A program made the translations under genes and the position numbers. A model generated the notes under the pieces. That model ran no database searches. It saw only the letters and a program-made list of their open reading frames with translations, and was not told where the DNA came from. Below are positions 10,479 through 47,250 of a DNA stretch of 64,000 bases, in pieces. The number at the start of each line of letters is the position of its first letter. Position 1 is the first letter of the stretch. Origin of the DNA: an uncultured Gaiellales bacterium (GTDB lineage: Bacteria > Actinomycetota > Thermoleophilia > RBG-16-64-13); assembly GCA_964497095.1 (NCBI GenBank), contig CAZCCL010000001.1, positions 348 through 64,347 of the forward strand, in the 5' to 3' direction.

Positions 10479-10508
10479 CGGCAGGTAGCGCATCCGGGCC
10501 GCAGCCGA

Positions 10509-10547
10509 CCCTGCCGGCGAAAGGTCATTCTGAAACGAGTTCTAAGG
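10509..10547 (+). promoter_or_regulatory. Copy A of conserved 39-nt motif CCCTGCCGGCGAAAGGTCATTCTGAAACGAGTTCTAAGG, 29 nt upstream of the Mo-oxidoreductase ATG
   Basis: 36/39 identical to 33417..33455 upstream of selD. Same orientation and same distance to the RBS and start codon. Confidence 0.5.
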
Positions 10548-10576
10548 TGGGGCACCACAACCGGAAGGAGCGGGGC

Positions 10577-13219
10577 ATGAACGGGGGCGGGTGCGGCGGC
10601 AAGGACACTCCCGGTTCGGAAGCGCCCGGCGCAGAAGTGCGCGGTGAGAGGACGCTCATCCGGGACATCAGCTTCTGTGGCGTGGCCAACGGCGCGAACT
10701 CCTGCCTGGTGGATATCGCCGGCGGCAAGATCCTGCGTATCCGGCCCATGCACTACGACTGGAAGTACCGCCTCGACGAACTGGGTCAATGGGAGATGCA
10801 CGCCCGGGGCATGACTTTCAGGCCCACCACCAAGAGCCTGATCCCTCCGCTCAGCCTCGCGTACAAGAAACGGGTGCAATCTCCAGCCCGGATCAGGTTC
10901 CCGATGAAGCGGGTCGACTTCGATCCAGACGGGGAGCGGAACATCCAGAACCGGGGTGTGAGCAAATACGTACGCATCTCCTGGGACGAGGCTCTCGACA
11001 TCATCACCGGCGAGATGCTGCGCGTTCGGGAGAAGTACGGGCCTACCGCCATCCTGTATCAGGCCGACCAGCACGGCGAGAACAAGGTCGTTCACGGTCC
11101 CCACGGCTGCGGGAGGAAGCTCCTACGGTTGTTCGGGGGGTTCACGCTCCAGGCCCGGCAGCCGGACAGCTGGGAAGGCTGGTGCTGGGGGGCGAAGCAC
11201 GTATGGGGCATGGAGCCGGTCGGGCAGCAGGTGCCACAGAGCAACTTGGTCTATGACATCGCCAAAAACACGGAGTTGTTGCTCTTCTGGGGCTGCGACC
11301 AGGAGACGACCACCTGGGGTTGGATGGGGCAACTACCCAGCCGTCTCAGCTTCTGGTTCACGGAGTTGGGGATCAGACAGGTCTATATCGCGCCCGACCT
11401 CAACTACGCGGCGGCGGTGCATGCCGACCGCTGGATCCCCATACTCCCCAACACCGATGCCGCTCTCTACCTGGCCATCGCCTATCAGTGGTTCGAGGAG
11501 GGCACCTACGACAAGGAGTACCTCGAGACCCACGCCTGCGGCGTCGAAGCATTCGAGGCATATGTGATGGGAGTGCAGGACGGGGTTCCCAAGAGCCCGG
11601 CGTGGGCGGCCCCGATTACCGGTGTGCCGTCGCGCATCATCAAAGCGCTGGCTCGGGAGTGGGCGTCCAAGCGAACGACGATCGCCATCGGGAACGGGGG
11701 ACCGATGATCCGCGGCCCCTACTCGAGCGAGCCGGCCCGCCTGCAGGTGCTCTGCCTGGCCATGCAGGGATTGGGCGGACCTGGGGCCAATCAGGCCAAG
11801 ATGGAGGATTGGGGCTTCATGGACGATCTGGCCCAGGTCGGGTGCCCCGAACCCGTCATGATTCCCAGCCTGTTCGCCGCCTACACCGGGGGCACCGGCG
11901 GCGAGACCAACCATGCCTTCGTGCCGAAGACCCTGGTCCCCAAAGCCATCATGGAGGGGAGCTGCGAGTGGTGGGGCAACGAGCACGAGATGGCCCCCCG
12001 GGAGAACCAGTTCGTCCACTACCGTTATCCGGCCGAGGGATGTTCCCGGATCCACATGGTCTGGACCGACTCCCCCTGTTTCATGACCTGCTGGAACGAC
12101 GGCAACAGCTTCGTGCGGGCCATGCGCCACCCCGATATCGAGTTCGTCTTCGCCCAGCATCCCTGGTGGGAAAACGATTGCCTCCTGGCCGACGTGATCC
12201 TGCCGGTCAGCACCAAGCTGGAGGAAGACGACATCAACGCCGACCTCTACAGCGGCCAGTCCATCCTGGTCTTCCCGGAGGAGCGATGCGTGGAACCGGT
12301 CGGGGAGTCCTTCAGCGACTACGAGATCGTCTGCAAGATTGCGGAGAGGCTGGGACTGCTCGAGGCATACACCGGGGGCAGGTCCGTCGACGACCTGAGG
12401 CGCCTGGGTTTCGAGACCTCCGGGGTCCGGGACCTGGCGGCCGGTGGGCCTGCAACGTGGGAGGAGTTCGTGGAGCAAGGCTATGTCACGCTTCCCACCA
12501 ACCCGGAGTGGGAGAAGGTGCCCGCCGGTCTCATCGACTTCTATCGCGACCCCGAGAGCCATCCGCTCAGCACTCCCACCGGCAAGATCGAGTTCTACGC
12601 TACCGGTCTGGCCGAGCACTTCCCCGACGACGAGGAGAGGCCGCCGGTACCCCGGTGGATCCCAGCCGGTCCCACCCACCAGGAGACGCTGGGGACAGAG
12701 CGGGCCAAGAGGTTTCCCCTGCTGGTGGTGTCGAACCACCCTCGTTGGGGCATACACGCCCAGCACGAAGACATCACGTGGCTCCGCGAGATCGAGACCT
12801 GCAAGGTCGGCGGCCCAGACGGCTACAAATACCAGCCTCTGTGGGTCCATCCCAGGGATGCAGCCACCCGGGGCATCGAGCACGGTGATGTGGTCATCAT
12901 CCACAACGAGCGCGGGGCGGTCTTGGCCGGCGCGTACGTGACCGAACGCATCATTCCTGGGGCGGTAAGCATGGACCACGGGGCCAAGTTCGACCCGATC
13001 GTCCCTGATGCTCTCGACCGGGGAGGCAACATCAACGCAATCGTACCCGGCCACACCACCTCCAAGAACGCGGTGGGCATGGCGGTGAGCGGTTTCCTGG
13101 CTGAGGTGGAGAAGGCCGACCTGGCGGGTCTCAGGGCCAAGTACGCCGAGGCATTTGCCCGGCCGTTCCACGCAGACGCCGGTCCGGGCGTGGAGGCATG
13201 GCTTGAAGCCGACACGTAG
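10577..13219 (+). CDS. Molybdopterin-dependent oxidoreductase, DMSO-reductase superfamily (catalytic subunit without N-terminal Fe-S motif; BisC/TorA/pyrogallol-transhydroxylase-like)
   Basis: 880-aa protein with molybdopterin-oxidoreductase-like organisation (…IAIGNGGPMIRG…, MDHGAKFDP…). GGAAGGAG RBS then ATG at 10577. No Tat motif, no CxxCxxxC. Confidence 0.65.
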   Translation: MNGGGCGGKDTPGSEAPGAEVRGERTLIRDISFCGVANGANSCLVDIAGGKILRIRPMHYDWKYRLDELGQWEMHARGMTFRPTTKSLIPPLSLAYKKRVQSPARIRFPMKRVDFDPDGERNIQNRGVSKYVRISWDEALDIITGEMLRVREKYGPTAILYQADQHGENKVVHGPHGCGRKLLRLFGGFTLQARQPDSWEGWCWGAKHVWGMEPVGQQVPQSNLVYDIAKNTELLLFWGCDQETTTWGWMGQLPSRLSFWFTELGIRQVYIAPDLNYAAAVHADRWIPILPNTDAALYLAIAYQWFEEGTYDKEYLETHACGVEAFEAYVMGVQDGVPKSPAWAAPITGVPSRIIKALAREWASKRTTIAIGNGGPMIRGPYSSEPARLQVLCLAMQGLGGPGANQAKMEDWGFMDDLAQVGCPEPVMIPSLFAAYTGGTGGETNHAFVPKTLVPKAIMEGSCEWWGNEHEMAPRENQFVHYRYPAEGCSRIHMVWTDSPCFMTCWNDGNSFVRAMRHPDIEFVFAQHPWWENDCLLADVILPVSTKLEEDDINADLYSGQSILVFPEERCVEPVGESFSDYEIVCKIAERLGLLEAYTGGRSVDDLRRLGFETSGVRDLAAGGPATWEEFVEQGYVTLPTNPEWEKVPAGLIDFYRDPESHPLSTPTGKIEFYATGLAEHFPDDEERPPVPRWIPAGPTHQETLGTERAKRFPLLVVSNHPRWGIHAQHEDITWLREIETCKVGGPDGYKYQPLWVHPRDAATRGIEHGDVVIIHNERGAVLAGAYVTERIIPGAVSMDHGAKFDPIVPDALDRGGNINAIVPGHTTSKNAVGMAVSGFLAEVEKADLAGLRAKYAEAFARPFHADAGPGVEAWLEADT

Positions 13220-20206: not shown

Positions 20207-23200
20207 CTAAGACATCGCTTCTGCTACGAGCGCCTGTCCGTTTGAGTCCGGGCCGGTTCCCGGCTTCAGGATCACCCCGCGCTGATGCTTCCCGTCTATC
20301 TTGATGACCAAGGGGTGGGAGAAGTGGAGGTGCCGGACGAAGGCAGCCTCCTGCATAGACGACTGTCCCTCCAGCCATTCCCAATCGAGTATGCCCTCTC
20401 CGCTTTCCGGGTTGACCGTGAAGTACCCGACTCGGAAGGAGGTCAGGTTCTGGAAGAAGTGGCTGCCCTGGGAAGGGGTGACCTTGATGTCCTTCAGGCC
20501 TGATTCCACGATCACCCGGGCCCCGGAGATCTGCTCCCAGGTGACGGGGATGCCCAGCCAAGGATCGGCCGAGCCCCAGCGGCCCAACCCGATCAGGATG
20601 TAGGGGACGCCCCGGGCGGCCAATCCCGCGTTGAAGCGGGCGACCTCCATCGCGATGTCCTGGCATTTGGCCCGGTCGAAACTGGCGTGGTCCACCATGA
20701 CCACGTCTCTGATGTGCACAAGCGTGCCGTTACCGAGCACGCTGCTCGACCACACCAGCACCTTTTCCGGCTCGACGTCTTCGGTATCCAACTCCTCCGA
20801 CTCTCGGGACAGAGCCATGGGACGCATCTGCAGGAAGCCGAAATCTGCCAGGGCGTCGGTCGATTCGGGCAACTGGACGGCGAACTCTATCTCTACTTCC
20901 GTGTTCATCCCCCAGCGTCCCAACTCCAGCAGTCGGTCCAGCGCCGCGGGGAGGGGGACGCTGCGCTGCTTGAGGATGGGGGCAAAACTGACCAAGCGGA
21001 TGCCCGGCCGGGAGATGCCGTCGTAAACCGCGTCGTTCTCGGGCGAATAGGTGGAGGCGACCGGGCCCAGGGTGCCGTCGGTCTCGGCGACGGCCAGGGG
21101 ATGAGGCTGTTCGGTGGTCTCGTCGCTATTGCTGTGGAGTTCCAGAGCAATGAACTGCCGCTGCGAGTTGGCGAGCATGTCCTCGGGCGTCGAGAAGTGC
21201 ATGAGGTGCTGGGGATGGCGGGGGCTGAACGAAAGAGCCCGGCCCCCATCGACGACCGTGCGGCCGAGACCCAGCGCCATCGTCACCACCCCGTCCGCCG
21301 CCTCCAGAGGGGGAGAGGGGTAGAAGTTGTGCGAGCGGGCCACTCCGGCGAGCGACGGGTAGAAACGGGTCCCGTGCTGCGCTCCCACTAGCCTCTGGAC
21401 GATCACCGCCATCTTCTCTTCCTCCAAGAGGTATGGCGTGACTTTGAAGTAATTCTTGGCGTAGGTCAGGAAGGTGGAAGCGAAGACGCGTTTGACCGCT
21501 CCGATCAACTGACGGAGCCGGACCGCGCGTTCCGGGTGGTTGTTGGGCAGCATGTAAGTCTTGTACACGCCGGCCAGCGGCTGATACTGGGAATCCTCGA
21601 GCAGGCTGGACGAGCGGACCGCCAGGGGGTAGGGGACCAGGTCGAGGAAAGCTGCCAGTTTGCTCTCGATCTCCTCGGGGAACGAAGCAGCGAGGAACCG
21701 CTCCTCGATCCCCCGGTCGTCCTCGGTCCCCATCGCGAACGGACGGAGGTCGTTCTCTTGGAGAAAGCGGTCGAAGACGTCCGTGCCCAGCACTACGCAG
21801 GGGGGGACGGTTATCTGCATCCCCGGGAATTGCTCTATCACGCCGAAATCACGGAGTAGGTGGCGCACGAACGCTAAGGCTCTGGCCTTGCCGCCGAGCG
21901 ACCCCTCGCCGATGCGGGCGAAACTGTTCTCGGGATCGAAGGTGGCCGGGTCGAAATCGGTCACCGATTCCCTGGTCCGCTCGCGTCGGTAGGTGTCTAT
22001 CTGCTCGATGAGATAGCGGCGGCGGCTCTCGATGGTGTCGTAGTCGGCGGAAGTACGCGGCCGCAGGTGATGCGCCAAGCGGAACTCCGTGCGTGCCTTC
22101 AACCAGCGCGAGAAGTCGTTTCGCTCCGCATGCAAGGCGATCGATTCGGCCGGCACGGTCCGCAGCATCTCCAGCAGGCTCTTCATATCCTTGGCCCGGC
22201 CCACCGGGGTGCCGTCGGGCAGGCTAAAGACGAAGTCACCGAAGAAGAAGTTGTCCACCACGAACCGGCGGAGGTCTTGCAGGAGCGTCGGGGAGCCCTT
22301 CAGGAGAAAATCGGCTCCCATCTTCCGGGCCAGGGCTTCGCTCTCGGGACGGCTCGACTGGAGGAGGATGGGGATGTCCTTCCAGGCCTCCTTCACTCTG
22401 CGGGCGAACTCCATCCCCGCCTCGGGGTTCAAAGTGCCCTCTTGGGGGAACTCGATGTCGGAGATGACTCCGAGCACCTCCTCTTGATACGCGGAGAAAT
22501 ACTCCCATGCCTCCTCGAACGTGCTGCAGAGGAGGATCTTGGGGCGCGCCCGCATGCGGAGGATCTTGTGGGCCGTGTTGACGCCTTCGGCTATGAGGCT
22601 CTGGGAGTGGTGGATGATCTCCGTGTAGATCATGGGCAGGAAGGCAGAGTAGTAGCGGATGTTGTCCTCGATGAGGAGGATGACCTGGATGCCCGCCACA
22701 CCCGTGTCGTAGGCGACGTTCAGCTTGTCCTCGATGTACTTGGTGATGGCCAGGAGGATGCGGGAGTCCCCTTCCCAGAGGAAGATGCGCTCGATCTCCG
22801 AGGTATCGCGGTGAGACATGAACTCGGCCAGCTCGCCGCCGTCGTAGGCCAGGATGACCACGGGGATGTCGAGACCTGCCGCTCGGGCCTCGCGCGCCAA
22901 CTCGACGGCGTTCATGTCGCCCAAGTTCACCGCGCTTACGATGAGATTGAAGCGGCTCTCCGCCTTGGCCAGGGCGATGGCCTCGGCGCCGCTGGACACG
23001 TGGGTGAGCCCGGTCGTGTGGTGAAGGTTCAGGTCGAGGAACTCGCCCAGTAGCAACTCGCTCAGTTGGCCGTCTTCCTGCAGGATGAAGGTGTCGTAGG
23101 TGCTCGACACCAGGATGATGTTCTCAACCCGGCGGGCCATGAGGTACTGGAAGTCGTATGCGTGACTCCAGTCCAGCTTCATCGGCTGGGTCGCTTCGGA

Positions 23201-23236
23201 CATGTCCCGCGCGCCGGCCTCGATGGCTACCGGCAC
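20207..23236 (-). CDS. Large PEP/pyruvate-binding (PPDK_N-type ATP-grasp) domain protein with two N-terminal receiver-like domains
   Basis: C-terminal half has a PPDK_N-like nucleotide-binding signature (IGEGSLGGKARALAFV…VVLGTDVFDRFL…). The N-terminal half contains two CheY-like segments (…ILLIEDNIRYYSAF…VISDIEFP…). No swivel His domain is recognised. Confidence 0.5.
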   Translation of the reverse strand: MPVAIEAGARDMSEATQPMKLDWSHAYDFQYLMARRVENIILVSSTYDTFILQEDGQLSELLLGEFLDLNLHHTTGLTHVSSGAEAIALAKAESRFNLIVSAVNLGDMNAVELAREARAAGLDIPVVILAYDGGELAEFMSHRDTSEIERIFLWEGDSRILLAITKYIEDKLNVAYDTGVAGIQVILLIEDNIRYYSAFLPMIYTEIIHHSQSLIAEGVNTAHKILRMRARPKILLCSTFEEAWEYFSAYQEEVLGVISDIEFPQEGTLNPEAGMEFARRVKEAWKDIPILLQSSRPESEALARKMGADFLLKGSPTLLQDLRRFVVDNFFFGDFVFSLPDGTPVGRAKDMKSLLEMLRTVPAESIALHAERNDFSRWLKARTEFRLAHHLRPRTSADYDTIESRRRYLIEQIDTYRRERTRESVTDFDPATFDPENSFARIGEGSLGGKARALAFVRHLLRDFGVIEQFPGMQITVPPCVVLGTDVFDRFLQENDLRPFAMGTEDDRGIEERFLAASFPEEIESKLAAFLDLVPYPLAVRSSSLLEDSQYQPLAGVYKTYMLPNNHPERAVRLRQLIGAVKRVFASTFLTYAKNYFKVTPYLLEEEKMAVIVQRLVGAQHGTRFYPSLAGVARSHNFYPSPPLEAADGVVTMALGLGRTVVDGGRALSFSPRHPQHLMHFSTPEDMLANSQRQFIALELHSNSDETTEQPHPLAVAETDGTLGPVASTYSPENDAVYDGISRPGIRLVSFAPILKQRSVPLPAALDRLLELGRWGMNTEVEIEFAVQLPESTDALADFGFLQMRPMALSRESEELDTEDVEPEKVLVWSSSVLGNGTLVHIRDVVMVDHASFDRAKCQDIAMEVARFNAGLAARGVPYILIGLGRWGSADPWLGIPVTWEQISGARVIVESGLKDIKVTPSQGSHFFQNLTSFRVGYFTVNPESGEGILDWEWLEGQSSMQEAAFVRHLHFSHPLVIKIDGKHQRGVILKPGTGPDSNGQALVAEAMS

Positions 23237-25162: not shown

Positions 25163-25245
25163 GCGTGGGATTCTAATGCGTCGGGAAAGGGAAGACTAAC
25201 GCGTTGCCCGCTTGAGTACTGTGGTTGTCTGTGCGGGAGTCGAAG

Positions 25246-26463
25246 ATGGAGCTTGTACAGGTCGATCGGGGACGGATCGAAGGCCTGCGCGAAGAGAGAC
25301 GGCGCGAGTCGTCTCCGATCATCGTGCCCGGCTTCTACTCCCGCCTGGCCGAAGAAGCCGTGGCCCACCTGGTGCAGGAGACAGGGCGAGATGAGGGATC
25401 CCCTGAGGACGTCGGCTATGTGCTTGCGGTCGAGAGGCCCCACGGCGGTCACACACACATCACGCTGGTAGAACTGTATGTGACTGCGGCTTATGGGACG
25501 CGCCTCGAGGACTTGCTCGACCTGGTCCGGGAGCATCTGAAGCCCACCGCCTACCTGGTCCGCACCGACGACTGCCGGCTGAATGCCACCCTCCTTGCCA
25601 GGGGACACCAGGTGGAGGCGGCCGCCTTGGTCATGCTGGCGGAGGAGGCGGGTGGTCCTGTCGAGGACGAGGCGGCGCCAACCCCGGCGGATGCCACGCT
25701 GGCCGCGTTCGGTCTTGAGCATTTGGTCGGGCTTCGAGAATTGCTGGAGGGCGCCGCCGGCGGGCAGAGAGAGGACGGTGGAGCGCACCATCACGAAGGC
25801 GGCGATCAGGCTTCGATGGTCGATCAACTGGATGCCTTGGCCCGGCAGGGACACAACTGGGTGCTGCTGGTGGGCGGGCGTCCTGTGGCCGTGGTCGCCC
25901 GGCTGGACGGAGGAGACGGGAGGCACGAGCTGCTCGACTTGGTCGTCGCCCGCGCCGACGAAGACGTCTTGGCCTGGGCCGTCGAGCGCTGCACGGACGA
26001 GCTGCGGAGGGAAGGCCGCCGGCCTGCCGCGGTCATCGATGCGGCTGAGCCCGCCCGGAGGCGTACCTTTCGAAAGGCCGGATACTACAGCGCCGCCGCC
26101 TACATGGTCTTCTACGATCCCGAGGCCGGCAGACCCAGTGTGGGCACGATGGCGGTGCAGGAACTGCGCGAACTCATGGACGGGCGGGAGCACTTCCGGC
26201 TAATCGATGTGCTCGGGGAGAAGCACTGGCGGGCGGGTCATCTCCCCGGATCCGAGTGGATGGACTTCAGGGGTCTGGCCCGGGAGGCTCGGCGCCGGTT
26301 CGAGGTCGACGAGCCCGTCATCCTCTACTGCGACGGCTTCACCTGAGAGGCGAGCGCGATCGCAGCTGATAAGCTGCGACAGTTGGGTTTCACGAACGTG
26401 CGCGATTTCGCCGGCGGCGTGGGCGAATGGGTGGCGGCCGGCTTCCCCTTGGAGGAGTCATGA
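25246..26463 (+). CDS. GNAT-like N-terminal region fused to C-terminal rhodanese domain; in-frame TGA (26344-26346) in the rhodanese active-site loop (…VILYCDGFT-TGA-EASAIAADKLRQLGFTNVRDFAGGVGEWVAAGFPLEES). Candidate selenocysteine; alternatively a nonsense pseudogene
   Basis: The reading frame continues for 38 codons after the TGA with canonical rhodanese C-terminal residues, then ends at a proper stop at 26461. Hairpin 13 nt after the TGA. ATG at 25246 with GGGAG RBS. Confidence 0.5.
26360..26379 (+). other. SECIS-like hairpin (7-bp stem TCGCAGC / GCTGCGA, loop TGATAA) starting 13 nt after the in-frame TGA of the rhodanese ORF
   Basis: Perfect inverted repeat read from the sequence. Same 13-nt offset as the selD hairpin. 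Confidence 0.4.
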
Positions 26464-27446
26464 AGGACTCGTTGGTGGACGGCGCGGCCGTGGAGCGGCT
26501 CCTGCTGTTCTCGGGCGCTCTGCGCGCCGGTCTGATCGACGCACTGGCGAACGGAGAAGCTTCGACGGTCGAGGAGGTTTCTCGAAGAGCGGAGACCGAT
26601 CCTCGGGCTACTCAGATCGTGCTCGAGGCTCTGGCGGCGGAAGGCGTGGTCGAGCGCCTGCAGGTGGAGCCGGCGACCACAGCGGAAGAAAGCGTCCGCT
26701 ACCGCCTCTCGGAGGTGGGGAGGGAGCATCTTCTCGGCGGCGGTGCGCAGGTGGAGCGCTTCGGTCTGATGCACCAGGTGAACAAGCTGCGGGGCTGGCT
26801 CGAGCTGCCGGAGGTCATCCGCACAGGACGGCCCGTGCCTCGTGATCCGGCCAAACGCGACGTCCGCACCATGGTGGGCGCGATGGGAGAGCGCGATCCG
26901 GCCCTGCTCGATGAGATCGTGGAGAGGTGTCTGGCCTATTCCGGTCCCATCCACACCATGTTGGACGTCGGGGGCGCCGTCGGTCACGTGGCCCGGCACT
27001 TCGCGCGCTGTGGCGTGCGTGCGACCTTGTACGACCGAGAGAATGTGATCCCGTTGGCTCGCGAGTTTCTGGGAGACGAGGGCGGTGACATCGCGCTGGT
27101 AGCAGGAGACTTCACCGAGTCTCTTCCCGCCGGGCCCTTCGACCTCGTCTACTTGGGCAATGTCCTTCACATCTACAGTCCGGCCACCAACGCGCGCGTG
27201 ACCCGGTCGGTCTTCCCGATCCTTCCTCCGGGGGGGACGATCGCCGTCCAGGACCACATGTGGGGACGGAGCCCCCGGGCGGCACGGTTCGCGGTGAACA
27301 TGCTACAGGCGACCGAGGAAGGTGGGGTCCGGACGGAGGCGCAGTACCGTGAGTGGCTGACGACGGCCGGGTTCGTGAAGATCGAGGTCTTGGACCTAGA
27401 GGCGGCCGCGGTGCAGCTCATCCTGGGCATGCGGCCGCGGATCTGA
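26460..27446 (+). CDS. SAM-dependent O-methyltransferase (class I MTase with N-terminal winged-helix dimerisation domain)
   Basis: N-terminal wHTH (…LIDALANGEASTVEEVSRRAE…) and Rossmann MTase motifs (MLDVGGAVGHVARHF…). ATG overlaps the rhodanese-ORF stop (ATGA) with GGAGGAG RBS. Confidence 0.75.
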   Translation: MKDSLVDGAAVERLLLFSGALRAGLIDALANGEASTVEEVSRRAETDPRATQIVLEALAAEGVVERLQVEPATTAEESVRYRLSEVGREHLLGGGAQVERFGLMHQVNKLRGWLELPEVIRTGRPVPRDPAKRDVRTMVGAMGERDPALLDEIVERCLAYSGPIHTMLDVGGAVGHVARHFARCGVRATLYDRENVIPLAREFLGDEGGDIALVAGDFTESLPAGPFDLVYLGNVLHIYSPATNARVTRSVFPILPPGGTIAVQDHMWGRSPRAARFAVNMLQATEEGGVRTEAQYREWLTTAGFVKIEVLDLEAAAVQLILGMRPRI

Positions 27447-27524
27447 GCGGGCGTGGGTAGGTTTACGAAAACGTCCTAGCGGGCAGCCCAGATTAGACTG
27501 TGGCTTCGAACCGAGGAGGTGATC

Positions 27525-27737
27525 ATGGGCAAGGTGCCGGACACGGAAGAGAACATGGCGAAGTGCATCTGCGGGGAATGCCCGTCGAAACCTCATGACG
27601 ACATGAGCTTCTACTGTGCCAAGGGCAAGAGTCGCCAACACGTGCGCCGCCGGGGCTGTGCCTGCGGTGACTGTCCGCTCTGGCCGGCATATGGGTTGAC
27701 CAAGGGTTACTACTGTGACGAAGGTGTGACCGAGTAG
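27525..27737 (+). CDS. Small Cys-rich protein, DUF2769 family (KCICGECP…GCACGDCP motifs)
   Basis: 70 aa with two CxCGxCP motifs plus extra Cys, characteristic of DUF2769. GAGGAGG RBS. Confidence 0.6.
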   Translation: MGKVPDTEENMAKCICGECPSKPHDDMSFYCAKGKSRQHVRRRGCACGDCPLWPAYGLTKGYYCDEGVTE

Positions 27738-27745
27738 GAGCGTGC

Positions 27746-28951
27746 ATGGAGCGATATCTACTAAGGGACGACATATGGTGGGCGGGTGCCATCGATTGGG
27801 ACGTCCGTGATTTCCACGGCTACGAGACCCCGCGGGGGACCACATACAACGCTTACCTGATCCTGGATGAGAAGGTGGCCCTGGTCGATGGCTGCCGGGA
27901 GGGCTTCGGCCCGGAGGTGTTGGCCCGGATCCGCGGCTGCTGTGGCATGCGCCCGGTAGACTACCTGGTCGTCAACCACGTGGAGCCCGATCATTCGGGG
28001 GCGATCCCCTGGCTGGTGGAGCGACTGAGACCTGAGCGGATCTTCTGCTCGAAGCGGGCGAGGGACGTGCTGGGCCTTTACTACGGGGCGGAGACGGTGG
28101 ACGGCTGGAATATCCAGACGGTCGCCACCGGGGACGAGGTCTCCCTCGGGCGCAACACGTTGCAGTTCATCGAAGCGCCCATGCTGCATTGGCCGGACAG
28201 TATGTTCACCTACGTCAGAGAGGCCAAGACCCTCCTGCCCAACGACGGTTTCGGCCAGCACCTGGCCACGTCCAAGCGTTTCGCCGACGAAGTCGACATG
28301 AGCTTGGTCATGGAGGAGGCCAGCAAGTACTACGCCAACATCCTCATGCCGTTCGGGGGACAGATCCAGAAGATGCTGGCCAAGATAGGCGAGCTGGGCC
28401 TGGAGATCGAGACGATCGGCCCCAGCCACGGGGTGATATGGCGCCGGCCCGAGGACGTGTCCCGCATCGTGGAGTCGTACGCTGCGTGGAGCGACTTCCA
28501 GGCGCCGGAGCGGGTGTCGCTGATCTACGACACCATGTGGCACGCCACCGAGCAGATGACCATGGCCATCGCGGACGGCGTGGCTCAGCAGGGAGTGGAC
28601 TGCGTGGTCGCCAGACTCAGCAGCAACCCCCGGTCCGAGATGGCACGCCTGGTTCTCGAGTCCAGGGCCTTCCTGGTGGGGTCGCCCACCCTGAACAACA
28701 ATATGTTCCCGACCGTCGGGGAATTCCTCACCTACATCAAGGGTCTCCGGCCGCGTAGGCGTGTGTCCGGCGCCTACGGCTCCTGCGGGTGGGCAGGAGG
28801 GGCGGTGAAGCAGCTCGACGCGGAGCTCACGGCCCTGGGTCTCGACATGGTGGAGCCCATCGAAGTCAAGTACAGGCCGAGCAAGGCCGAGTTGGAGACG
28901 TGCGTGGAACTGGGCCGGCAGGTGGCCCGCAAAGTCAGGACCACCGGATAG
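27746..28951 (+). CDS. Flavodiiron protein (FprA/rubredoxin:oxygen oxidoreductase type; metallo-beta-lactamase plus flavodoxin domains)
   Basis: …LVNHVEPDHSGAIPWL… di-iron site region. C-terminal flavodoxin-like domain (…FLVGSPTLNNNMFPTV…). 401 aa. Confidence 0.85.
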   Translation: MERYLLRDDIWWAGAIDWDVRDFHGYETPRGTTYNAYLILDEKVALVDGCREGFGPEVLARIRGCCGMRPVDYLVVNHVEPDHSGAIPWLVERLRPERIFCSKRARDVLGLYYGAETVDGWNIQTVATGDEVSLGRNTLQFIEAPMLHWPDSMFTYVREAKTLLPNDGFGQHLATSKRFADEVDMSLVMEEASKYYANILMPFGGQIQKMLAKIGELGLEIETIGPSHGVIWRRPEDVSRIVESYAAWSDFQAPERVSLIYDTMWHATEQMTMAIADGVAQQGVDCVVARLSSNPRSEMARLVLESRAFLVGSPTLNNNMFPTVGEFLTYIKGLRPRRRVSGAYGSCGWAGGAVKQLDAELTALGLDMVEPIEVKYRPSKAELETCVELGRQVARKVRTTG

Positions 28952-28966
28952 CGGGGGAGTAGAGGC

Positions 28967-29566
28967 GTGAGCGTTACCGTGCTCGGCTTGGCAGGCAGCG
29001 CCCGCCGCGGGGGGAACACCGAGACCCTCCTCGACTGGTGTCTGGCGGCAGCTGCAGGGGAGGGTGCCGAGGTGGTCAAGTTCCGGCTCTGCGACCTCGA
29101 ACTTCACGGCTGCCGGGCCTGCGAGTCCTGCTCGCGTGACGGCGTGTGCGTGGTCAAGGACGACATGCAGTCGCTCTATCCGCACCTTAGAAGGGCCGAC
29201 TCTATCGTGCTGGCCGCCCCGGTCTACTCCATGGGCATACCGGCGGTACCCAAGATGGTCATCGACCGCTGCCAGCCCTTCTGGGCGCTCAAGTACGTGC
29301 TCAAGCAGGCCGTCGCCGAGCCGGGTGGCCGGCAGAGGTTGGGGGCGTTCCTCAGTTGTGCCGGGACCTCGTTCAGCTATGTCTTCGACGGCTGCCGGCT
29401 GGTGATGCGCACCTTCTGGCACATGCTGGAGGTGTCGCCGGCCGGAGACCTGCTCTGCCCGGGAGTGGATGCCAAGGGAGACATACTCGAGCATCCCGAG
29501 GCCCGGGAGGTGGCCGAGGATATCGGTCGGCGTCTGGGGCGCGGGCGGGGTCCGCGCACGGGTTGA
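28967..29566 (+). CDS. Iron-sulfur flavoprotein (Isf-like NADPH-dependent FMN reductase fold with compact Cys motif)
   Basis: MSVTVLGLAGSARRGGNTETLL… flavodoxin-like start. CRACESCSRDGVC compact 4-Cys motif typical of Isf. Confidence 0.7.
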   Translation: MSVTVLGLAGSARRGGNTETLLDWCLAAAAGEGAEVVKFRLCDLELHGCRACESCSRDGVCVVKDDMQSLYPHLRRADSIVLAAPVYSMGIPAVPKMVIDRCQPFWALKYVLKQAVAEPGGRQRLGAFLSCAGTSFSYVFDGCRLVMRTFWHMLEVSPAGDLLCPGVDAKGDILEHPEAREVAEDIGRRLGRGRGPRTG

Positions 29567-29591
29567 ACACGCGATCTAGGAAGGGGGACAG

Positions 29592-29795
29592 GTGGTAGAC
29601 GAGATCAAGACCTGCATCGAGTGCGGCAAGCCTCTCGTTGATCGGGTCGAGGAGGAGGAGCGCACCGGCACGGGCACCAGCCTTTCGACGGGCGAGTGCA
29701 GCACGTATCGGGTCTGGTCCTGCGCGAACAGCGAATGCGTGCTGTACAAGACCGACATATACAGGGACCAGATAGCCGATCGCAGCGACCGCTGA
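29592..29795 (+). CDS. Small zinc-ribbon protein (CxxC…CxxxxC)
   Basis: 67 aa: TCIECGKPL…WSCANSECV. GTG start with AAGGGGGA RBS. Confidence 0.4.
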   Translation: MVDEIKTCIECGKPLVDRVEEEERTGTGTSLSTGECSTYRVWSCANSECVLYKTDIYRDQIADRSDR

Positions 29796-29821
29796 GCAAG
29801 GCACGACGATAGGAGGCTCAC

Positions 29822-30025
29822 ATGGAGAAACGCTTGCAGCGGTCCCGGACCGAGAAGATGCTCGGCGGGGTTTGCGGAGGTCTGGCGGCTTATTTCGGCG
29901 TGGATCCCACCTTGGTGCGGGTCCTCTGGATCGCCATGACGCTGATCGTCGGGGTGGGGATCCTGCTTTACCTCATCCTGTGGGTGGTGATGCCCCTAGA
30001 GGCTCCCGCGCAGCCCTTGGACTGA
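29822..30025 (+). CDS. PspC-domain membrane protein
   Basis: …[52 protein letters not shown] matches the PspC domain consensus. Confidence 0.65.
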
Positions 30026-30817
30026 CGGCCGGGGCGGGACGAAGCCGTAGGGCAGCTCCAGATCGTAGGCCGCGAGTAGAGGTTCGTTCAGCAGTATCTC
30101 CTCGATCGGCCCGTCCGCTACGACCCGGCCCTCCGCCAGGATAAGCGCGCGCTCGCACAGTTCGTAGGCGACCGGTAGGTCGTGAGTCACGACGATCTTC
30201 GTGACCGGCAGATCCTGCAGGATGTCGATGAGCTGCCGCCGGGACTTGGGGTCCAAGTTGGAGGAGGGTTCATCCAATACGAGGACCTCCGGACGCATGG
30301 CAAGCACGGTCGCCGTGGCCACCCGCTTCTTCTGACCGAAAGAAAGATGATGAGCGGGCCGGTCTTCGTAGCCCTGCATACCCACGGCGGCGAGTGCTTC
30401 TCTGACTCGCAGGAGGATCTCGTCTTTCTCCAGACCCATGTTGACCGGGCCGAACGCCACATCCTGAGCCACGCTGGTGAGGAACAGTTGATCCTCGGGG
30501 TCCTGGAAGACCACCCCTACCCTGCGCCTTATCTCACGCAGATTCTTGTCCTCGACGTTCAGGCCGAACACGCGGAGACTTCCCGTCCCCCGCAGGATGC
30601 CGTTGAGATGAAGGAGAAGGGTGGTCTTGCCGGCTCCGTTCGGACCGATGATGGCCACCGACTCCCCCTGTTGTACGTTGAAACCGACCCCGCGCAACAC
30701 TTCGGTACCGTCCGGATAGGCGAAATGGAGGTCTTCGGCCTCCACAGCCGGCGGCTTTCCTCCGACCAAGGACAGCTCGGTCAAAGGGTGCGGCCTCGGG
30801 CTCCTCCCGTCTTTCAC
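29996..30817 (-). CDS. cbiO: ECF transporter ATPase (CbiO/EcfA)
   Basis: GPNGAGKTT Walker [17 protein letters not shown] signature, [11 protein letters not shown] Walker B. GTG start overlaps the cbiQ stop (GTGA). Confidence 0.85.
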
Positions 30818-31590
30818 AGTGACGACACCGCGCGGACGGAGACAACGAGTAGCAAGAGGCCGCCGAGGAACACGGCGTCGGTGGTCCGAAAGCGGCCCCC
30901 CTCGACCAGTCTCACCGTGCCGTCGTAGCCCCGGCTGAGCATGGCCACGTACACGCGCTCCCCGCGGCTGTAGCTGCGGAGAAACAGCGCGCTCAACATG
31001 TAGCCGAGGGTGGGAGCGTTCCAGAGCCACCGGGCTCGGTAGTTGCGGGCGGTCATGGCTCGGCGCATGCGCCGCAGTTCGTCGGCGAACACAAAACTGT
31101 ACCGGTACATGAAGCTGACTATGAGCACGAAGACCTTGGGTGTCTTCAGGCGCTCGAAACCGGACACCATCTCGGCGAAGGATGTGGTCGAGCTCAGGAT
31201 GATCATGCTGATCACGCCCAGAATGGCTTTCGCTCCCACGTTCCAGAGGACGAGCAGGCCTTCACCCGTGACCCGCATGCCCCCCAGGCTGTAGCCGCCG
31301 CCCCCCGCTTGGTGGAAGAAGGGGAGGAAGATGGCTACCACTAGGATGAAGGGCAACACCACCAGGGCGCGTCGGAGCACGTGCTTGAGGGGGAGGCGCG
31401 AGACCCCGATCAGGAAGAACAGGATGCCGGCGTAGAGCGCGTAGGGCCACATGGGTAGAGCCGGCGTGGTGACCACCACCACCGTGAAGCCGATGAATCC
31501 GAGGATCTTTGCCCGGGGATCGAGACGGTGCAGCGGGCTTTGCTCCGCGCGGATCTCGGTCAGGAAGGAGTCGGCCTCGATCAGCGCCAT
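30814..31590 (-). CDS. cbiQ: ECF transporter transmembrane T component (CbiQ/EcfT)
   Basis: 258-aa polytopic protein with CbiQ-like features (…LDPRAKIL…LSRGYDG…). ATG at 31590. Confidence 0.8.
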   Translation of the reverse strand: MALIEADSFLTEIRAEQSPLHRLDPRAKILGFIGFTVVVVTTPALPMWPYALYAGILFFLIGVSRLPLKHVLRRALVVLPFILVVAIFLPFFHQAGGGGYSLGGMRVTGEGLLVLWNVGAKAILGVISMIILSSTTSFAEMVSGFERLKTPKVFVLIVSFMYRYSFVFADELRRMRRAMTARNYRARWLWNAPTLGYMLSALFLRSYSRGERVYVAMLSRGYDGTVRLVEGGRFRTTDAVFLGGLLLLVVSVRAVSSL

Positions 31591-31622
31591 AGTGCAGTCG
31601 TCCTCACAGGATCGAGCCGGGT

Positions 31623-32693
31623 CTAGGATCGGCCGGAGGGCCCAGAAGGCGGCAAGTCGCGGATCTCGTCGTTCCTCCTCGCAGGCTGGGTGGCTGGGGT
31701 CATGCGCCGGCCTCTTCCACCAAGCGCACGGCCGGCCAGGACCACGAGCCCGAAGAGTACGACCGTGCCCGCCAGACCGGCGATGGCCGTAGCCACCCTC
31801 TCGTTGCCGACTCCGGGCAGCTGGTAGTCGCCGAGTGGAGAAAGACCCCACGTAGGTTCCTCAGCAGCCGCCTGTTCGAATCCCCTGTCCGCTGCGACCT
31901 TCTCCAGGCCATCGGGAGAGCCGGAGGCGAAGGGCGAGACGAACACCGCCAGGGCGACGGCGACGACCAGCGCACCGGCGACGAACGACCAGAAGCGCGC
32001 CCTTCCACTCATGCGCATGCCTGGTCGTCCGGCGGCGCGGCGCACCGTCTCACGAGGTAGGTCGAACGTCTTGACCAGATCGGGGCGGGTGGCCAGGACC
32101 GCAGCCACCACAGCCGTGGTGATCAGGGCCTCGCCGACGGCTATGACCATGTGTACGGAGACCATCGCGGGTAGAGCGATACGGAGCGGCGTGGTCCCGG
32201 AGACGGCCAGTTCGGCCGAAGCCACGGCCGAAGCTGCGACCACCGATATCCAGGAAGCCACGGCTACCGAGACCAAGTAACCGGACAGAGTGCGAGGAAG
32301 GAGCCTCTTCAGTCCAACGAAGACTGCATACCCGACGAAGACCGCGACCACGCCCATGTTGAACACGTTGGCTCCCAAGGCGGTGATGCCCCCGTCGGCC
32401 ATACCCAAGGCCTGGACCACGAGGACGACGGTCATCACAATCGGGGCCGACCACACTCCCAGAAGTGCGACGGCGAACATCGCCCCCAGAAAGTGCCCGC
32501 TTGTGCCGCCGGCGACGGGGAAGTTGAGCATCTGAGCGGCGAAGATGAAGGCCGCACCGACCCCGAGCAGCGGCACGGTCCTCTCGCCCAAGTCGTTCTT
32601 GGTCTTGTGGACCGCGTACGCCACCGTCCCAAGCGATACCGCTCCGGTCGCGACTGCAGTGGGGATGTTTACGAACCCGTCAGGGATGTGCAT
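31623..32693 (-). CDS. cbiM: CbiM/NikM substrate-capture component fused to PDGLE (CbiN-like) domain
   Basis: MHIPDGF… N-terminus diagnostic of CbiM/NikM. C-terminal roughly 130 aa contains the PDGLE motif plus two TM helices. AGGAG RBS. Confidence 0.8.
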   Translation of the reverse strand: MHIPDGFVNIPTAVATGAVSLGTVAYAVHKTKNDLGERTVPLLGVGAAFIFAAQMLNFPVAGGTSGHFLGAMFAVALLGVWSAPIVMTVVLVVQALGMADGGITALGANVFNMGVVAVFVGYAVFVGLKRLLPRTLSGYLVSVAVASWISVVAASAVASAELAVSGTTPLRIALPAMVSVHMVIAVGEALITTAVVAAVLATRPDLVKTFDLPRETVRRAAGRPGMRMSGRARFWSFVAGALVVAVALAVFVSPFASGSPDGLEKVAADRGFEQAAAEEPTWGLSPLGDYQLPGVGNERVATAIAGLAGTVVLFGLVVLAGRALGGRGRRMTPATQPARRNDEIRDLPPSGPSGRS

Positions 32694-32708
32694 CGCTCTC
32701 CTCTGCTC

Positions 32709-33161
32709 CTAGTCTTCCCGGCAGGCGCTGCAGAGGCCGAAGACTGTGACTTCGCGGGTCGCAAAACCCTGGTCTTCAAGCAAGGTGGTACCCAGGCCTC
32801 CCAGATCCTCGTCGTGCACGTGGGTCACCCGACCGCACGTTTCGCAGACCAGGTGGTGATGGGGGACCTCTTCTTCCACCTCGAAGAAGCGCCGAGTGGG
32901 ACCGAGGTGGGTCTCCCGGACCAGATGAAGGTCGACCAGCAACTCCAGAGTGCGGTACACGGTGGACATGTTGATGTTCGGAAACCGGTCCTGCACCCGG
33001 GCACAGACCTCTTCGGCGCTCATATGCGAGCCGTGCTCGCGGAGCACATCCCATACCAAAGTGCGCTGGGGGGTCAGTCTGTACCCCATCTCGTGGAGCG
33101 TGCGGGTGGCATGATGGGTCACGGTTCTTGCAAGCTTATTGCAATAGCCTTTTGTTGTCAA
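32709..33161 (-). CDS. nur: Fur-family metalloregulator, probably nickel-responsive Nur
   Basis: Fur-family DNA-binding helix (…YRLTPQRTLVWDVL…) and metal-site HHH/Cys residues (…HHHLVCETCGRVTHVHDE…). Directly precedes cbiMNQO. Own promoter carries a Nur box. The start is ambiguous: TTG at 33161 or GTG at 33122. Confidence 0.7.
   Translation of the reverse strand: MTTKGYCNKLARTVTHHATRTLHEMGYRLTPQRTLVWDVLREHGSHMSAEEVCARVQDRFPNINMSTVYRTLELLVDLHLVRETHLGPTRRFFEVEEEVPHHHLVCETCGRVTHVHDEDLGGLGTTLLEDQGFATREVTVFGLCSACRED
33128..33144 (-). promoter_or_regulatory. Nur-box-type operator TTGCAA-N5-TTGCAA overlapping the nur promoter -10
   Basis: Perfect TTGCAA-gctta-TTGCAA read from the sequence, matching the published Nur box (tTGCaa-N5-ttGCAA). 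Located in the nur leader. Confidence 0.55.
33133..33161 (-). promoter_or_regulatory. Putative nur promoter TTGACA-17 nt-TAAGCT (valid only if nur starts at GTG 33122)
   Basis: Perfect -35 hexamer with 17-nt spacer read on the minus strand. Under the TTG-start model the -35 is instead codons 1-2. Confidence 0.3.
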
Positions 33162-33280
33162 CAGCAGTCAGGATGCGGGGGACCTTCGCCCCCTTGGCCC
33201 CCAGCGCCTCGGTCTGCTAGTGTCTCGGGTGCTCGCGTATGTGCGGTCCAGGACGCCTACGCAGGCCTCTGAAGGAGCGG

Positions 33281-33314
33281 CGCCTGAGAACTCGTTTCAG
33301 AGTGGCATCTCGGC
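33281..33314 (-). promoter_or_regulatory. Copy C (inverted, partial) of the conserved motif; core CTCTGAAACGAGTTCTCAGG on the minus strand
   Basis: Reverse complement of 33281..33304 matches the cores of copies A and B (14-nt identical run CTGAAACGAGTTCT). Confidence 0.4.
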
Positions 33315-33416
33315 CACCGAGGCCGCGCTTGGCGGCCGGACGCTTCGTTCTTTCGTCGCGTCCGTGTCTCCAGAACGCCTGCTTCCTGCGTCCTTGCCGC
33401 GGGCATGCCAATCTCA

Positions 33417-33455
33417 CCCTGCTGGCGAAAGGTCATTCTGAAACGAGCTCTGAGG
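33417..33455 (+). promoter_or_regulatory. Copy B of conserved 39-nt motif CCCTGCTGGCGAAAGGTCATTCTGAAACGAGCTCTGAGG, 33 nt upstream of the selD ATG
   Basis: See copy A. Followed by AAGGAGG RBS. Confidence 0.5.
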
Positions 33456-33488
33456 GCTATCGAACGGGAAGAAAGGAGGTGATGGTCG

Positions 33489-34556
33489 ATGGAGGCGATC
33501 CCGAGGCTGACCACGCTCTCGCACGGTTCGGGCTGAGCGTGCAAATTGGGCCCCAAGGACTTGGGGCAGGTGATGGAGATGCTGCCACGCGTGGGTGATC
33601 CCGCTCTGCTCGTGGGCGCGGATACGTTGGACGATGCGGCCGTCTACCGCGTGACGGGTGAGATCGCCCTGGTGCAGACGATCGATTTCTTCACGCCGGT
33701 GGTCGACGACCCCTACGATTTCGGTCGTATCGCCGCCGCCAACGCTTTCTCCGACGTCTACGCCATGGGCGGCCGGCCCCTGACCGCGCTCAATATTGTG
33801 TGCTTCCCTTCGGGGGTCCTGCCGTTGGAAACCCTGGGGAGGATCCTGCAGGGCGGGGCGGAGACGGCTCGGCTCGCCGGGGCTACCATCGTTGGTGGGC
33901 ACACCATCGACGACCCCGAACCCAAGTATGGGCTGGCCGTCACCGGCGTGCTGGAGCCGGGCCATGAGCTGACAAACGCCGGCGCCAGGCCAGGCGACGC
34001 CCTCATCCTCACGAAGCCGTTGGGTACCGGGGTGATCTCGACCGCCATCAAGCAGGGGACCGCCTCTGCCGAGGCCATCGCGGCCGCCACCGCCTCCATG
34101 GCGACTCTCAATCGGGGCGGGGCCGAGGTAGCTCGTGCTTGCGGTGCCCATGCGCTCACGGACATCACCGGCTTCGGCCTCCTGGGCCACCTCAGCGAGT
34201 TGTGCCGGGCGAGCGGGGTGCTCGCCGAGGTGTGGTACGACCGGTTGCCCCTGCTGGTCCAAGCAGAAGCACTGGCCCAGACCGGGGTCGTCCCGGGCGG
34301 CACGAGACGCAACCTGGAGTATGTGCAGCCCTGGACGGCGTTCGACCCCGAGTTGGAGCCTTGGCAGCACCTCCTGTGCGCCGATGCGCAGACGTCCGGC
34401 GGTCTCATTCTTGTGGTCTCGCCTGAGAAGGTGCCGGAAGCACTCGAGGCGCTGACGGCCGGAGATACCCCGGCTGCGGTGGTCATCGGCCGGGTCATCA
34501 CCAGGGAGGAAGCAAAGGGGTCCCTACTCACAGTCGGATTCGCCGGAACCGGGTGA
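33489..34556 (+). CDS. selD: Selenophosphate synthetase (selenide, water dikinase), selenocysteine-containing form; UGA-Sec at 33534-33536
   Basis: With ATG at 33489 the N-terminus reads MEAIPRLTTLSHGSG-U-ACKLGPK…, matching the SelD consensus SHGAG(C/U)GCK with TGA at the Cys17 position. The rest is a full AIR-synthase-like SelD body. The ORF caller started at 33546. Confidence 0.9.
33550..33567 (+). other. SECIS-like hairpin GCCCCAA-GGAC-TTGGGGC, 13 nt downstream of the selD UGA
   Basis: 7-bp perfect stem with GGAC loop read from the sequence. Confidence 0.6.
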
Positions 34557-45820: not shown

Positions 45821-45993
45821 CCCTACGGTCCCTCTCCCCCCACGCTCACTGTGTCTCGGCCGAGTCAGCATATAGAATCAGCAACGTAGCCGCCAGGGGC
45901 GCGCCGGGGTACCGCAGGCCCGCGAGTTGAGAGGACGCTCTTGACCGGGCCGACCGAGTGTCGAAAAGGGCGCAGAGGAGACGAGAAGAACAC

Positions 45994-47250
45994 ATGGACC
46001 ACGTGGACCGGCAAGCGGGACTCGAGGTCTGGGCGCTCGAGCCCTACTTCGGAGGCTCTCACAAGTACTTCTTGGAGGGGCTGTCGAGGCAGTCCGCCCA
46101 TCGTTTCAAGCTGTTCACCCTCCCTGGCCGGCACTGGAAGTGGCGGATGCACGGAGGGGCTCTATCGTTGGCTCAAAGGGTGAGTGAAGAGGGTCGCTTG
46201 GGATCTGCACCCGACTCGGCCGCCCCAGGACCCGATGTGCTGTTCGTGTCCGATATGCTCGATCTAGCCGTCTTCTTAGCGGCGGTCGAGCCGGGGATCG
46301 CCGGCGCCCCGGCGATCGCCTACTTCCACGAGAACCAGCTCACGTATCCCCTGCCCCCGGGCGTCGAGCGAGACCTGAGTTACGGCTTCAAGAACTTGAC
46401 CACAGCAGTAGCGGCCCGCACCGTCCTCTTCAACAGCGAATACCATCGCCGGGAATTCCTGGAGGCCTGCTCGGCTCTGCTGAAGGCGATGCCGGACAAG
46501 ATCCCCCACTCGTATCTGGAGGAGATCGAGGCGAAATCAAGGGTTCTGCCGATCGGCTGCGACCTGCGCCGGTTCGACCGCCATCGGCCGACGGGGAGAT
46601 CGCAGGCGGCGAACGGTCGCTGGGGCGATCCCCAAGCCGGACCCCTCATCGTGTGGAACCAGCGCTGGGAATACGACAAGGCCCCGGGGGCTCTCTTCGC
46701 GGCCCTGTACGAGCTGAAGGCTCGGGGGGTACGGTTCCGCCTGGCGATGGCGGGGCCCAACCAAGGCACACCGACGGCGGAGTTCCTGCGCGCCAGGCGA
46801 GAGTTGAAGGACGAGATCGTGCAGTGGGGGAGGGTCACACGAGCCACCGATTATGCGTGTCTTCTATGGTCTTCCGACGTAGTGGTCTCCACGGCCGTCC
46901 ACGAGTTCTTCGGCATAGCGGTGGTCGAAGCTCTCTACTGCGGGTGCCGGCCGGTCCTGCCTCGCCGGCTCAGCTACCCGGAGATCATCCCACCCGAGGT
47001 GCATGAAGATGTCTTGTACGGGGAAGGTGAGCTGGTAGGAGCCCTCGCCGGAGCGTTGGCTCGGCCGCGCGGCTGGTCGGAGGACTGGCAGAGGACGTGG
47101 GTGAGCCGCTTCGATTGGGCGAGCCTTCGGACTCGCTACGATGAAGAGATCCGGCGGTGTTGGGAGAACGAGGCACGCACCCGGAGCCCGCGGCGCCGGG
47201 TCGGTGACCAAGTGGGAGGGAGAGACGGTGGCGGAGAGACTATCGCTTGA
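45994..47250 (+). CDS. Glycosyltransferase family 4 with N-terminal DUF3524 domain (tRNA-queuosine mannosyltransferase-like architecture)
   Basis: …VWALEPYFGGSHKYF… DUF3524 start and C-terminal GT1 fold (…EFFGIAVVEALYCGCRPVLP…). Confidence 0.6.
   Translation: MDHVDRQAGLEVWALEPYFGGSHKYFLEGLSRQSAHRFKLFTLPGRHWKWRMHGGALSLAQRVSEEGRLGSAPDSAAPGPDVLFVSDMLDLAVFLAAVEPGIAGAPAIAYFHENQLTYPLPPGVERDLSYGFKNLTTAVAARTVLFNSEYHRREFLEACSALLKAMPDKIPHSYLEEIEAKSRVLPIGCDLRRFDRHRPTGRSQAANGRWGDPQAGPLIVWNQRWEYDKAPGALFAALYELKARGVRFRLAMAGPNQGTPTAEFLRARRELKDEIVQWGRVTRATDYACLLWSSDVVVSTAVHEFFGIAVVEALYCGCRPVLPRRLSYPEIIPPEVHEDVLYGEGELVGALAGALARPRGWSEDWQRTWVSRFDWASLRTRYDEEIRRCWENEARTRSPRRRVGDQVGGRDGGGETIA

Follow-up and report, generated by a model that had tools for sequence, protein, structure and literature searches.

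A predicted selenocysteine-containing rhodanese fusion in a putative redox-defence neighbourhood of an uncultured Gaiellales bacterium

What does a 9.3-kb run of genes bracketed by two in-frame UGA codons do in an uncultured Gaiellales bacterium, and is it selenium that holds the run together? The genes lie at positions 25246-34556 of a 64,000-nucleotide stretch of contig CAZCCL010000001.1 (assembly GCA_964497095.1; G+C ~65%), hereafter referred to as the window. The run begins with a gene encoding a rhodanese domain fused to an N-terminal GNAT-like module (referred to as FUS, or the fusion) and ends with selD, encoding selenophosphate synthetase. The original prediction, made from the sequence alone, saw in this arrangement a possible selenium-utilisation or selenium-detoxification trait, perhaps one of Se-methylation. 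We favour a different explanation, at a probability of roughly 0.55, namely that the stretch combines a redox-defence string, a Ni/Co uptake operon and a housekeeping selD on a gene backbone conserved within the lineage, whose gene content suggests anaerobes. Its first gene encodes a selenoprotein architecture that is absent from the catalogues we checked.

Selenocysteine codons and architecture of the fusion

The fusion gene (25246-26463, + strand, 405 codons) carries an in-frame TGA at 26344-26346, within a rhodanese loop predicted to read YC-DGFT-U-EAS. A protein search returned ~100 homologues, nearly all covering 90% of the query, and 86 of them were aligned. Among these, 81 stop exactly at YCxxxx, i.e., at the TGA, and the other five read through with Cys at the selenocysteine (Sec) position, followed by the conserved CEAxxIAADKLRQLGF. 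We also compared 36 genomic loci, which are metagenome-assembled genomes (MAGs) and metagenome contigs of uncultured Actinomycetota, several of them labelled Thermoleophilia or Gaiellales. The fusion codon was compared in 27 of these loci, all taken from a species-representative collection: 26 have TGA, and L020 has TGT (Cys). The coding sequence after the TGA, EASAIAADKLRQLGF, is conserved.

Downstream of the UGA, folding predicts a hairpin resembling a selenocysteine insertion sequence (SECIS) at 26360-26379 (+ strand), with an 8-bp stem (UCGCAGCU / AGCUGCGA) that begins 16 nt 3' of the codon and a GAUA loop. The hairpin sequence is nearly invariant in 26/26 TGA loci and degenerate in the Cys locus L020. 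Among the 26 TGA sequences, third-base entropy falls to 0-0.24 bits at codons +8 to +12, counted from the TGA, compared with ~1-1.8 bits in flanking codons whose amino acids are invariant. All 26 TGA sequences use GAT and the rare codon CGA in the hairpin, where L020 has GAC and AGG, breaking the stem.

SelD (33489-34556, + strand) scores 398 bits against TIGR00476 (cut-off 125 bits) and has the N-terminal loop motif HGSG-U-ACK. Its in-frame codon (33534-33536) is TGA in 22/22 copies (the window and 21 loci, including two near-duplicates), and a SECIS-like hairpin given by fold prediction (33550-33567, + strand; GCCCCAA-GGAC-UUGGGGC) recurs across loci; in L008 one C:G pair of it is replaced by U:A, a compensatory change. 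Taken together, the codon counts, Cys homologues and hairpins confirm, at the level of sequence, the earlier proposal that both bracketing genes encode Sec; the TGA is no true stop. A search of the whole window with Rfam at gathering thresholds gave no match, hence no catalogued SECIS model, and a tRNA scan of the same sequence gave nothing, hence no tRNA-Sec. Two further in-frame TGA candidates from an open reading frame (ORF) scan based on third-position G+C, at ~15942 and 59075, were rejected because each marks the point where two distinct genes meet (HisD and HisB at the first, a ROK kinase and RsmI at the second).

The rhodanese domain of the fusion matches PF00581 at 48 bits (cut-off 22.2 bits). 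A structure was modelled for P0010, a natural Cys homologue, with the 86-sequence alignment (mean predicted local distance difference test score, pLDDT, 90.5). The model confirms a predicted tandem GNAT fold over ~residues 1-295, and the earlier description of the N-terminus as GNAT-like was thus right at the level of the fold, with no Pfam GNAT match in the fusion at E<0.01. In the same model the rhodanese catalytic Cys is placed at a strand end, the usual position; compared with solved rhodaneses the loop has two extra residues, and Sec follows the Cys at the fifth position (C-x4-U). The acetyl-CoA motif Q/R-x-x-G-x-G/A is conserved in neither GNAT half (at most 12/86 sequences at any column), and the acylation step once envisaged for this protein is therefore doubtful. 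Instead, the first half holds an invariant His-x2-His-x-His cluster (H66, H69, H71), located at a beta-hairpin and accompanied by E76, D108 and C110.

A family-profile search of PDB sequences yielded marginal matches only, and when the N-terminal domain by itself was searched exhaustively against 1.84 billion representatives, only 19 proteins were recovered, essentially the fusion family and its fragments. The one outlier, P0247 (283 aa), consists of a tandem GNAT alone; it has preserved RGRGVG and possesses neither a rhodanese domain nor the His cluster, which suggests that the module in the fusion is a degenerate derivative.

Gene string, transporter operon and conservation among relatives

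The genes listed in the original prediction are all present at their places, as judged from ORFs, Pfam and NCBIfam. Downstream of the fusion and on the same strand is a class I S-adenosylmethionine-dependent O-methyltransferase of family 2 (26460-27446; PF00891, 62.3 bits; N-terminal dimerisation domain PF08100, 27 bits; each exceeds its cut-off), whose ATG overlaps the fusion stop (ATGA, 26460-26463). It is followed by a Cys-rich DUF2769 protein (27519-27737; PF10967, 49 bits), for which no characterisation was found in the literature searched, and by a flavodiiron protein of the FprA type lacking a rubredoxin domain (27746-28951; ODP 66 bits, Flavodoxin_1 55 bits), which falls below the NorV equivalog cut-off (378 vs 635 bits). 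The next gene encodes an iron-sulfur-flavoprotein-like (Isf) FMN reductase (28967-29566; FMN_red, 72 bits) with a five-Cys run, C-x6-C-x2-C-x2-C-x5-C, which we take to be an Isf-type Fe-S motif. The string closes with a 67-aa zinc-ribbon-like protein (29592-29795; CxxC ... CxxxC, no Pfam match), which is 60-82% identical across most related loci, and a PspC-domain membrane protein (29822-30025; PF04024, 93.5 bits). From FUS to PspC, the intergenic gaps are -4, 72, 8, 15, 25 and 26 nt.

On the opposite strand, a Fur-family regulator (32709-33161) heads an operon encoding a fusion of CbiM with a CbiN-like PDGLE domain for Ni/Co substrate capture (31623-32693; PF01891 191 bits, PF13190 61 bits), the energy-coupling factor (ECF) transmembrane component CbiQ (30814-31851 as a maximal ORF, start probably ~31600; PF02361, 135 bits) and a CbiO-type ECF ATPase (29996-31030 as a maximal ORF, start probably ~30810; ABC_tran, 100 bits), whose orthologue in L034 has 270 aa. 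The ECF set (CbiM with PDGLE, CbiQ and ABC_tran) is therefore complete for a putative Ni/Co transporter. This operon had been read as nur-cbiMNQO: the cbi genes and a Fur-family regulator are indeed there, but Nur can stand only as a tentative label: among the NCBIfam matches listed, the best are Fur (97 bits) and PerR (82 bits), neither of which reaches its cut-off, and no Nur model is present. Transcription of selD in the window diverges from that of this operon, which lies between selD and the fusion string.

Gene limits in the compared loci were obtained by targeted tblastn and Pfam, as tblastx between loci was too noisy at 65% GC. The proposed translational coupling of fusion and methyltransferase is borne out by the ATGA overlap, and the two genes are adjacent in 29/30 fusion-bearing loci, often with overlapping stop and start. 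The pair is separable all the same: in L035/L036 FprA comes directly after the fusion, without the methyltransferase, and L029, L031 and L032/L033, chosen because the fusion was not listed on their contigs, have the methyltransferase without the fusion. No genome demonstrated to be without Sec was found to carry the pair. The closest solved structure to the methyltransferase is that of the tyrosine O-methyltransferase MfnG (7ux6, 1.7e-22), and the S-methyltransferase DsyB matches its fold at 3.6e-4; its solved relatives include O-, C- and S-methyltransferases. We take it to be a small-molecule enzyme of family 2; it is the usual, though not obligatory, companion of the fusion.

FprA follows the fusion in 26 of the 28 assessable loci. 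GDH, FprA or the fusion is split over frames in seven loci from long-read MAGs (L005, L007, L016, L022, L027, L029, L030); these splits look like assembly frameshifts, and absences there need care. In 17 loci selD lies downstream of the fusion at a distance of no more than 10 kb, and in L004, L013, L029 and L032 it directly follows PspC on the same strand, cbi-fur being absent. The string of L032, which has neither the fusion nor FprA, still holds the methyltransferase, DUF2769, Isf, zinc-ribbon and PspC genes and selD. In three loci of a sister clade (L014, L018 and L019) the 10 kb around the fusion contain no selD, and the string ends there in a two-component system.

The window and its relatives share a backbone in the order DnaE, His genes, PPDK-like, GDH, the cluster and HATPase/STAS, continuing through deacetylase, GcvP, B12 radical SAM and FtsZ. 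Because this synteny includes housekeeping genes on both sides, the adjacency of the cluster genes largely reflects common descent. In the sister clade, whose fusion is 38-42% identical, the upstream synteny (GDH) is lost, the downstream string is kept and redox genes have been gained, among them genes for rubrerythrin and for a protein that joins Pyr_redox_2 to Rubredoxin_C and has a zinc-ribbon tail. In eight sister-clade loci, moreover, the fusion and the methyltransferase are separated by a glutaredoxin gene (PF00462, 52 bits) whose in-frame TGA falls in the motif SPT-U-xx-C (L018:11141-11413, L024:11147-11419, L011, L012, L014, L021, L023 and L026). This Sec-glutaredoxin, a third selenoprotein gene of the cluster, is absent from the window, and its placement inside the fusion-methyltransferase pair is new as far as we could check. 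Sister-clade loci also have an insertion after FprA, where genes for a DUF5981 (MTHFR C-terminal-like) protein and an HTH_20 regulator lie on the opposite strand and precede the rubredoxin-reductase-like gene (L018:14816-16242, - strand, with equivalents in L014 and L019).

Further upstream, several relatives have a gene for a LiaF-TM/DUF4097 'toastrack' membrane protein (L031:8871-10004, L029:8786-9982). It abuts the fusion in L002, L005, L007, L009, L025 and L030, and in loci that lack the fusion it shares 4 nt with the start of the methyltransferase gene. We rejected it as a replacement for the fusion, since it is a further upstream member of the cluster that stays when the fusion is lost; together with PspC, it hints at an envelope-stress component. 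Between a divergent membrane-protein gene and the fusion, at ~25165-25215 of the window, lies an intergenic motif, GTGGGATTCTA-TGC--GGGAAAGGGAA, which is kept in the window, L001, L003, L016, L022 and L034 and could be a shared promoter or operator. A promoter and terminator scan found no more sites than in shuffled sequence.

Elsewhere in the window are a large molybdopterin oxidoreductase whose first domain is AhtL-like (pyrogallol hydroxytransferase-type; 9806-13216, + strand), a 1009-aa PPDK_N ATP-grasp protein whose N-terminus weakly resembles a receiver domain and which is conserved beside GDH in relatives (20207-23236, - strand), and a glycosyltransferase with a strong match, at 196 bits, to QTMAN_N, the N-terminal domain of tRNA-queuosine alpha-mannosyltransferase (45931-47247, + strand).

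Competing explanations for the neighbourhood

The explanation that we favour divides the run into three units. The tight same-strand string of fusion, methyltransferase, DUF2769, FprA, Isf, zinc-ribbon and PspC genes would serve oxygen or peroxide defence, or redox homeostasis. The GNAT module of the fusion would have lost its acetyl-CoA signature and gained the His cluster, and the Cys/Sec pair may either cycle via a selenenylsulfide or carry a sulfane or selane atom, being re-reduced by thiol or flavin partners; the sister clade encodes a Sec-glutaredoxin directly after the fusion. The second unit, fur-cbiM(N)QO on the opposite strand, would serve Ni/Co uptake and is dispensable, some relatives being without it. 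The third, selD, would enable Sec for the fusion and for SelD itself. As the SelD of the window is itself a Sec protein in a Sec-decoding organism, it needs no extra explanation, and selD is most likely a housekeeping Sec-type selenophosphate synthetase gene that forms a separate transcription unit in the window.

Several points weigh against this explanation. Both the redox-defence role and the catalytic chemistry are ones that we infer, and a functional site at the His cluster is putative, as is any link between it and the Cys/Sec loop. The fusion has no universal partner, FprA being missing in L020 and L034 and the methyltransferase in L035. The string is not purely redox, as it also holds envelope-stress-type genes (PspC, and LiaF/DUF4097-like in relatives). 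In most loci selD keeps its place at the string's end despite the loss of other genes, and the selD of L032 seems to run in the same direction as the string and to lie close against it, leaving room for a real functional tie. Finally, all loci come from one lineage, and conservation of gene order is therefore weak evidence for shared function.

This last point leads to the least improbable of the alternatives, which we still consider unlikely: that the genes share no function, their order being inherited, and that the fusion acts on its own, as a thiol/selenol redox protein or a sulfurtransferase. The single uncultured Actinomycetota lineage behind 36/36 loci, the collinear backbone from DnaE to FtsZ and the dispensability of each fusion partner in some locus would all be expected in that case. 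However, the fusion keeps the methyltransferase and FprA down to 38% identity, where upstream GDH synteny is lost, start and stop codons overlap, and new redox genes have been inserted inside the string and not elsewhere. The recurring ATGA overlap or near-abutment in many loci could alternatively mean that fusion and methyltransferase jointly produce or alter a small antioxidant or a metabolite resembling a low-molecular-weight thiol, with the rhodanese inserting S or Se, the GNAT fold binding the substrate (perhaps through a metal site formed by the three His) and the methyltransferase capping the product. The resemblance of the methyltransferase to MfnG and other small-molecule enzymes of family 2, the invariant His, Asp and Cys residues of the first GNAT half and the redox-defence neighbours fit this account, which we nonetheless find less likely again, given that the two genes are separable, that no other biosynthetic genes are nearby, that the GNAT halves lack the acetyl-CoA motif and that nothing hints at a substrate.

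A selenium-handling trait close to the one originally predicted would have the Sec-rhodanese bind or relay reduced selenium and the methyltransferase methylate a selenium acceptor or excess selenide, with flavoproteins giving electrons and SelD consuming, or competing for, selenide. It draws on the proximity of selD in 17 loci and its position directly after PspC in L004, L013, L029 and L032, on the survival of the methyltransferase-to-selD string in L032, on the presence of up to three selenoprotein genes per cluster and on a PF00891 fold that takes in the S-methyltransferase DsyB; rhodanese can, as Ogasawara et al. reportedly found in 2001, carry selenium in vitro. Yet fusion and methyltransferase each occur alone, three sister loci have no selD within 10 kb, the synteny extends to unrelated housekeeping genes and the nearest solved relatives of the methyltransferase are aromatic small-molecule methyltransferases. 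Nor does the region contain a selenium-specific enzyme: SelU and SenA/B-like proteins are absent from it, the window has no tRNA-Sec, and neither SelA nor SelB is among the window proteins scanned, which are part of the total. With redox genes as the recurrent neighbours, we regard such a trait as improbable, and caution that proximity to selD inside a single lineage is no evidence for a selenium pathway. More improbable still is the most far-reaching version, in which fusion, Sec-glutaredoxin and methyltransferase would constitute a Se-dependent chalcogen-transfer and methylation route that makes or detoxifies a methylated S/Se molecule, a new selD-linked pathway of anaerobic Actinomycetota, and in which the pseudo-GNAT His cluster would be a new site binding metal or substrate.

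Comparison with known systems

Flavodiiron proteins, iron-sulfur flavoproteins, rubrerythrins and rubredoxin-reductase types are the tools of anaerobes against oxygen and peroxide. The favoured explanation, a redox-defence string beside a Ni/Co operon and a housekeeping selD, draws on this likeness, as the window has FprA and Isf, and the sister loci add rubrerythrin and the Pyr_redox_2/Rubredoxin_C protein. We know of no such defence cluster with a Sec-rhodanese fusion, a family-2 methyltransferase, DUF2769 or selD. Thermoleophilia-type Actinomycetota, which are poorly studied and uncultured, decode Sec and, if the explanation is right, use it in apparent oxygen defence.

Clusters for the selenometabolites selenoneine (senABC) and ovoselenol also place selD near genes unrelated to translation (mentioned in PMC13188914). 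They differ from the window in that no SenA/EgtB-like or SenB glycosyltransferase-like gene is among the genes at 25.2-34.6 kb: all those with a family match belong to other families, and the 67-aa zinc-ribbon protein matched none. SelU (2-selenouridine synthase) was rejected as an identity for the fusion, which has no P-loop domain and whose rhodanese partner is predicted to be the tandem GNAT fold. The glutaredoxin gene of the sister loci shares U-x-x-C with known glutaredoxin selenoproteins (UxxC, PF00462). Compared with the tandem GNATs 3iwg (uncharacterised, from Colwellia) and MshD (1ozp) of the PDB, the fusion lacks a Pfam GNAT match and the acetyl-CoA motif and has instead the invariant His-x2-His-x-His cluster and a C-terminal rhodanese domain; an MshD-like mycothiol synthase was rejected on the absence of that motif and of any sequence-level match.

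To our knowledge, rhodanese selenoproteins are known only as predicted families without established chemistry. The natural Cys variants of the fusion could be expressed in ordinary hosts, and its recurring redox partners, including the Sec-glutaredoxin, suggest what to assay. A 2026 catalogue distinguishes five forms of rhodanese selenoproteins: UxxS, UxxG, CxU (NF041203), UxxG and TsoB UxxxxU (NF045694) (PMC13188914). The fusion fails the models for two of them, scoring 39.3 bits against NF041203 (cut-off 115), having C-x4-U in place of CxU, and 29.3 bits against NF045694 (TsoB rhodanese/DsbD; cut-off 805), having a tandem GNAT fold as its partner. The terms GNAT, acetyltransferase and CxxxxU have zero occurrences in the text of the catalogue (PMC13188914), and the architecture of the fusion is absent from the catalogues checked, i.e., the forms of PMC13188914 and the NCBIfam selenoprotein models. 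Like the five forms, the fusion has its predicted Sec in or beside the catalytic loop and a UGA with a downstream hairpin, and it shares with TsoB the four-residue spacing between both chalcogen residues (table in PMC13188914). It alone combines C-x4-U in a lengthened loop with a degenerate tandem GNAT module, and thereby adds a distinct and well-supported form of rhodanese selenoprotein to those already described.

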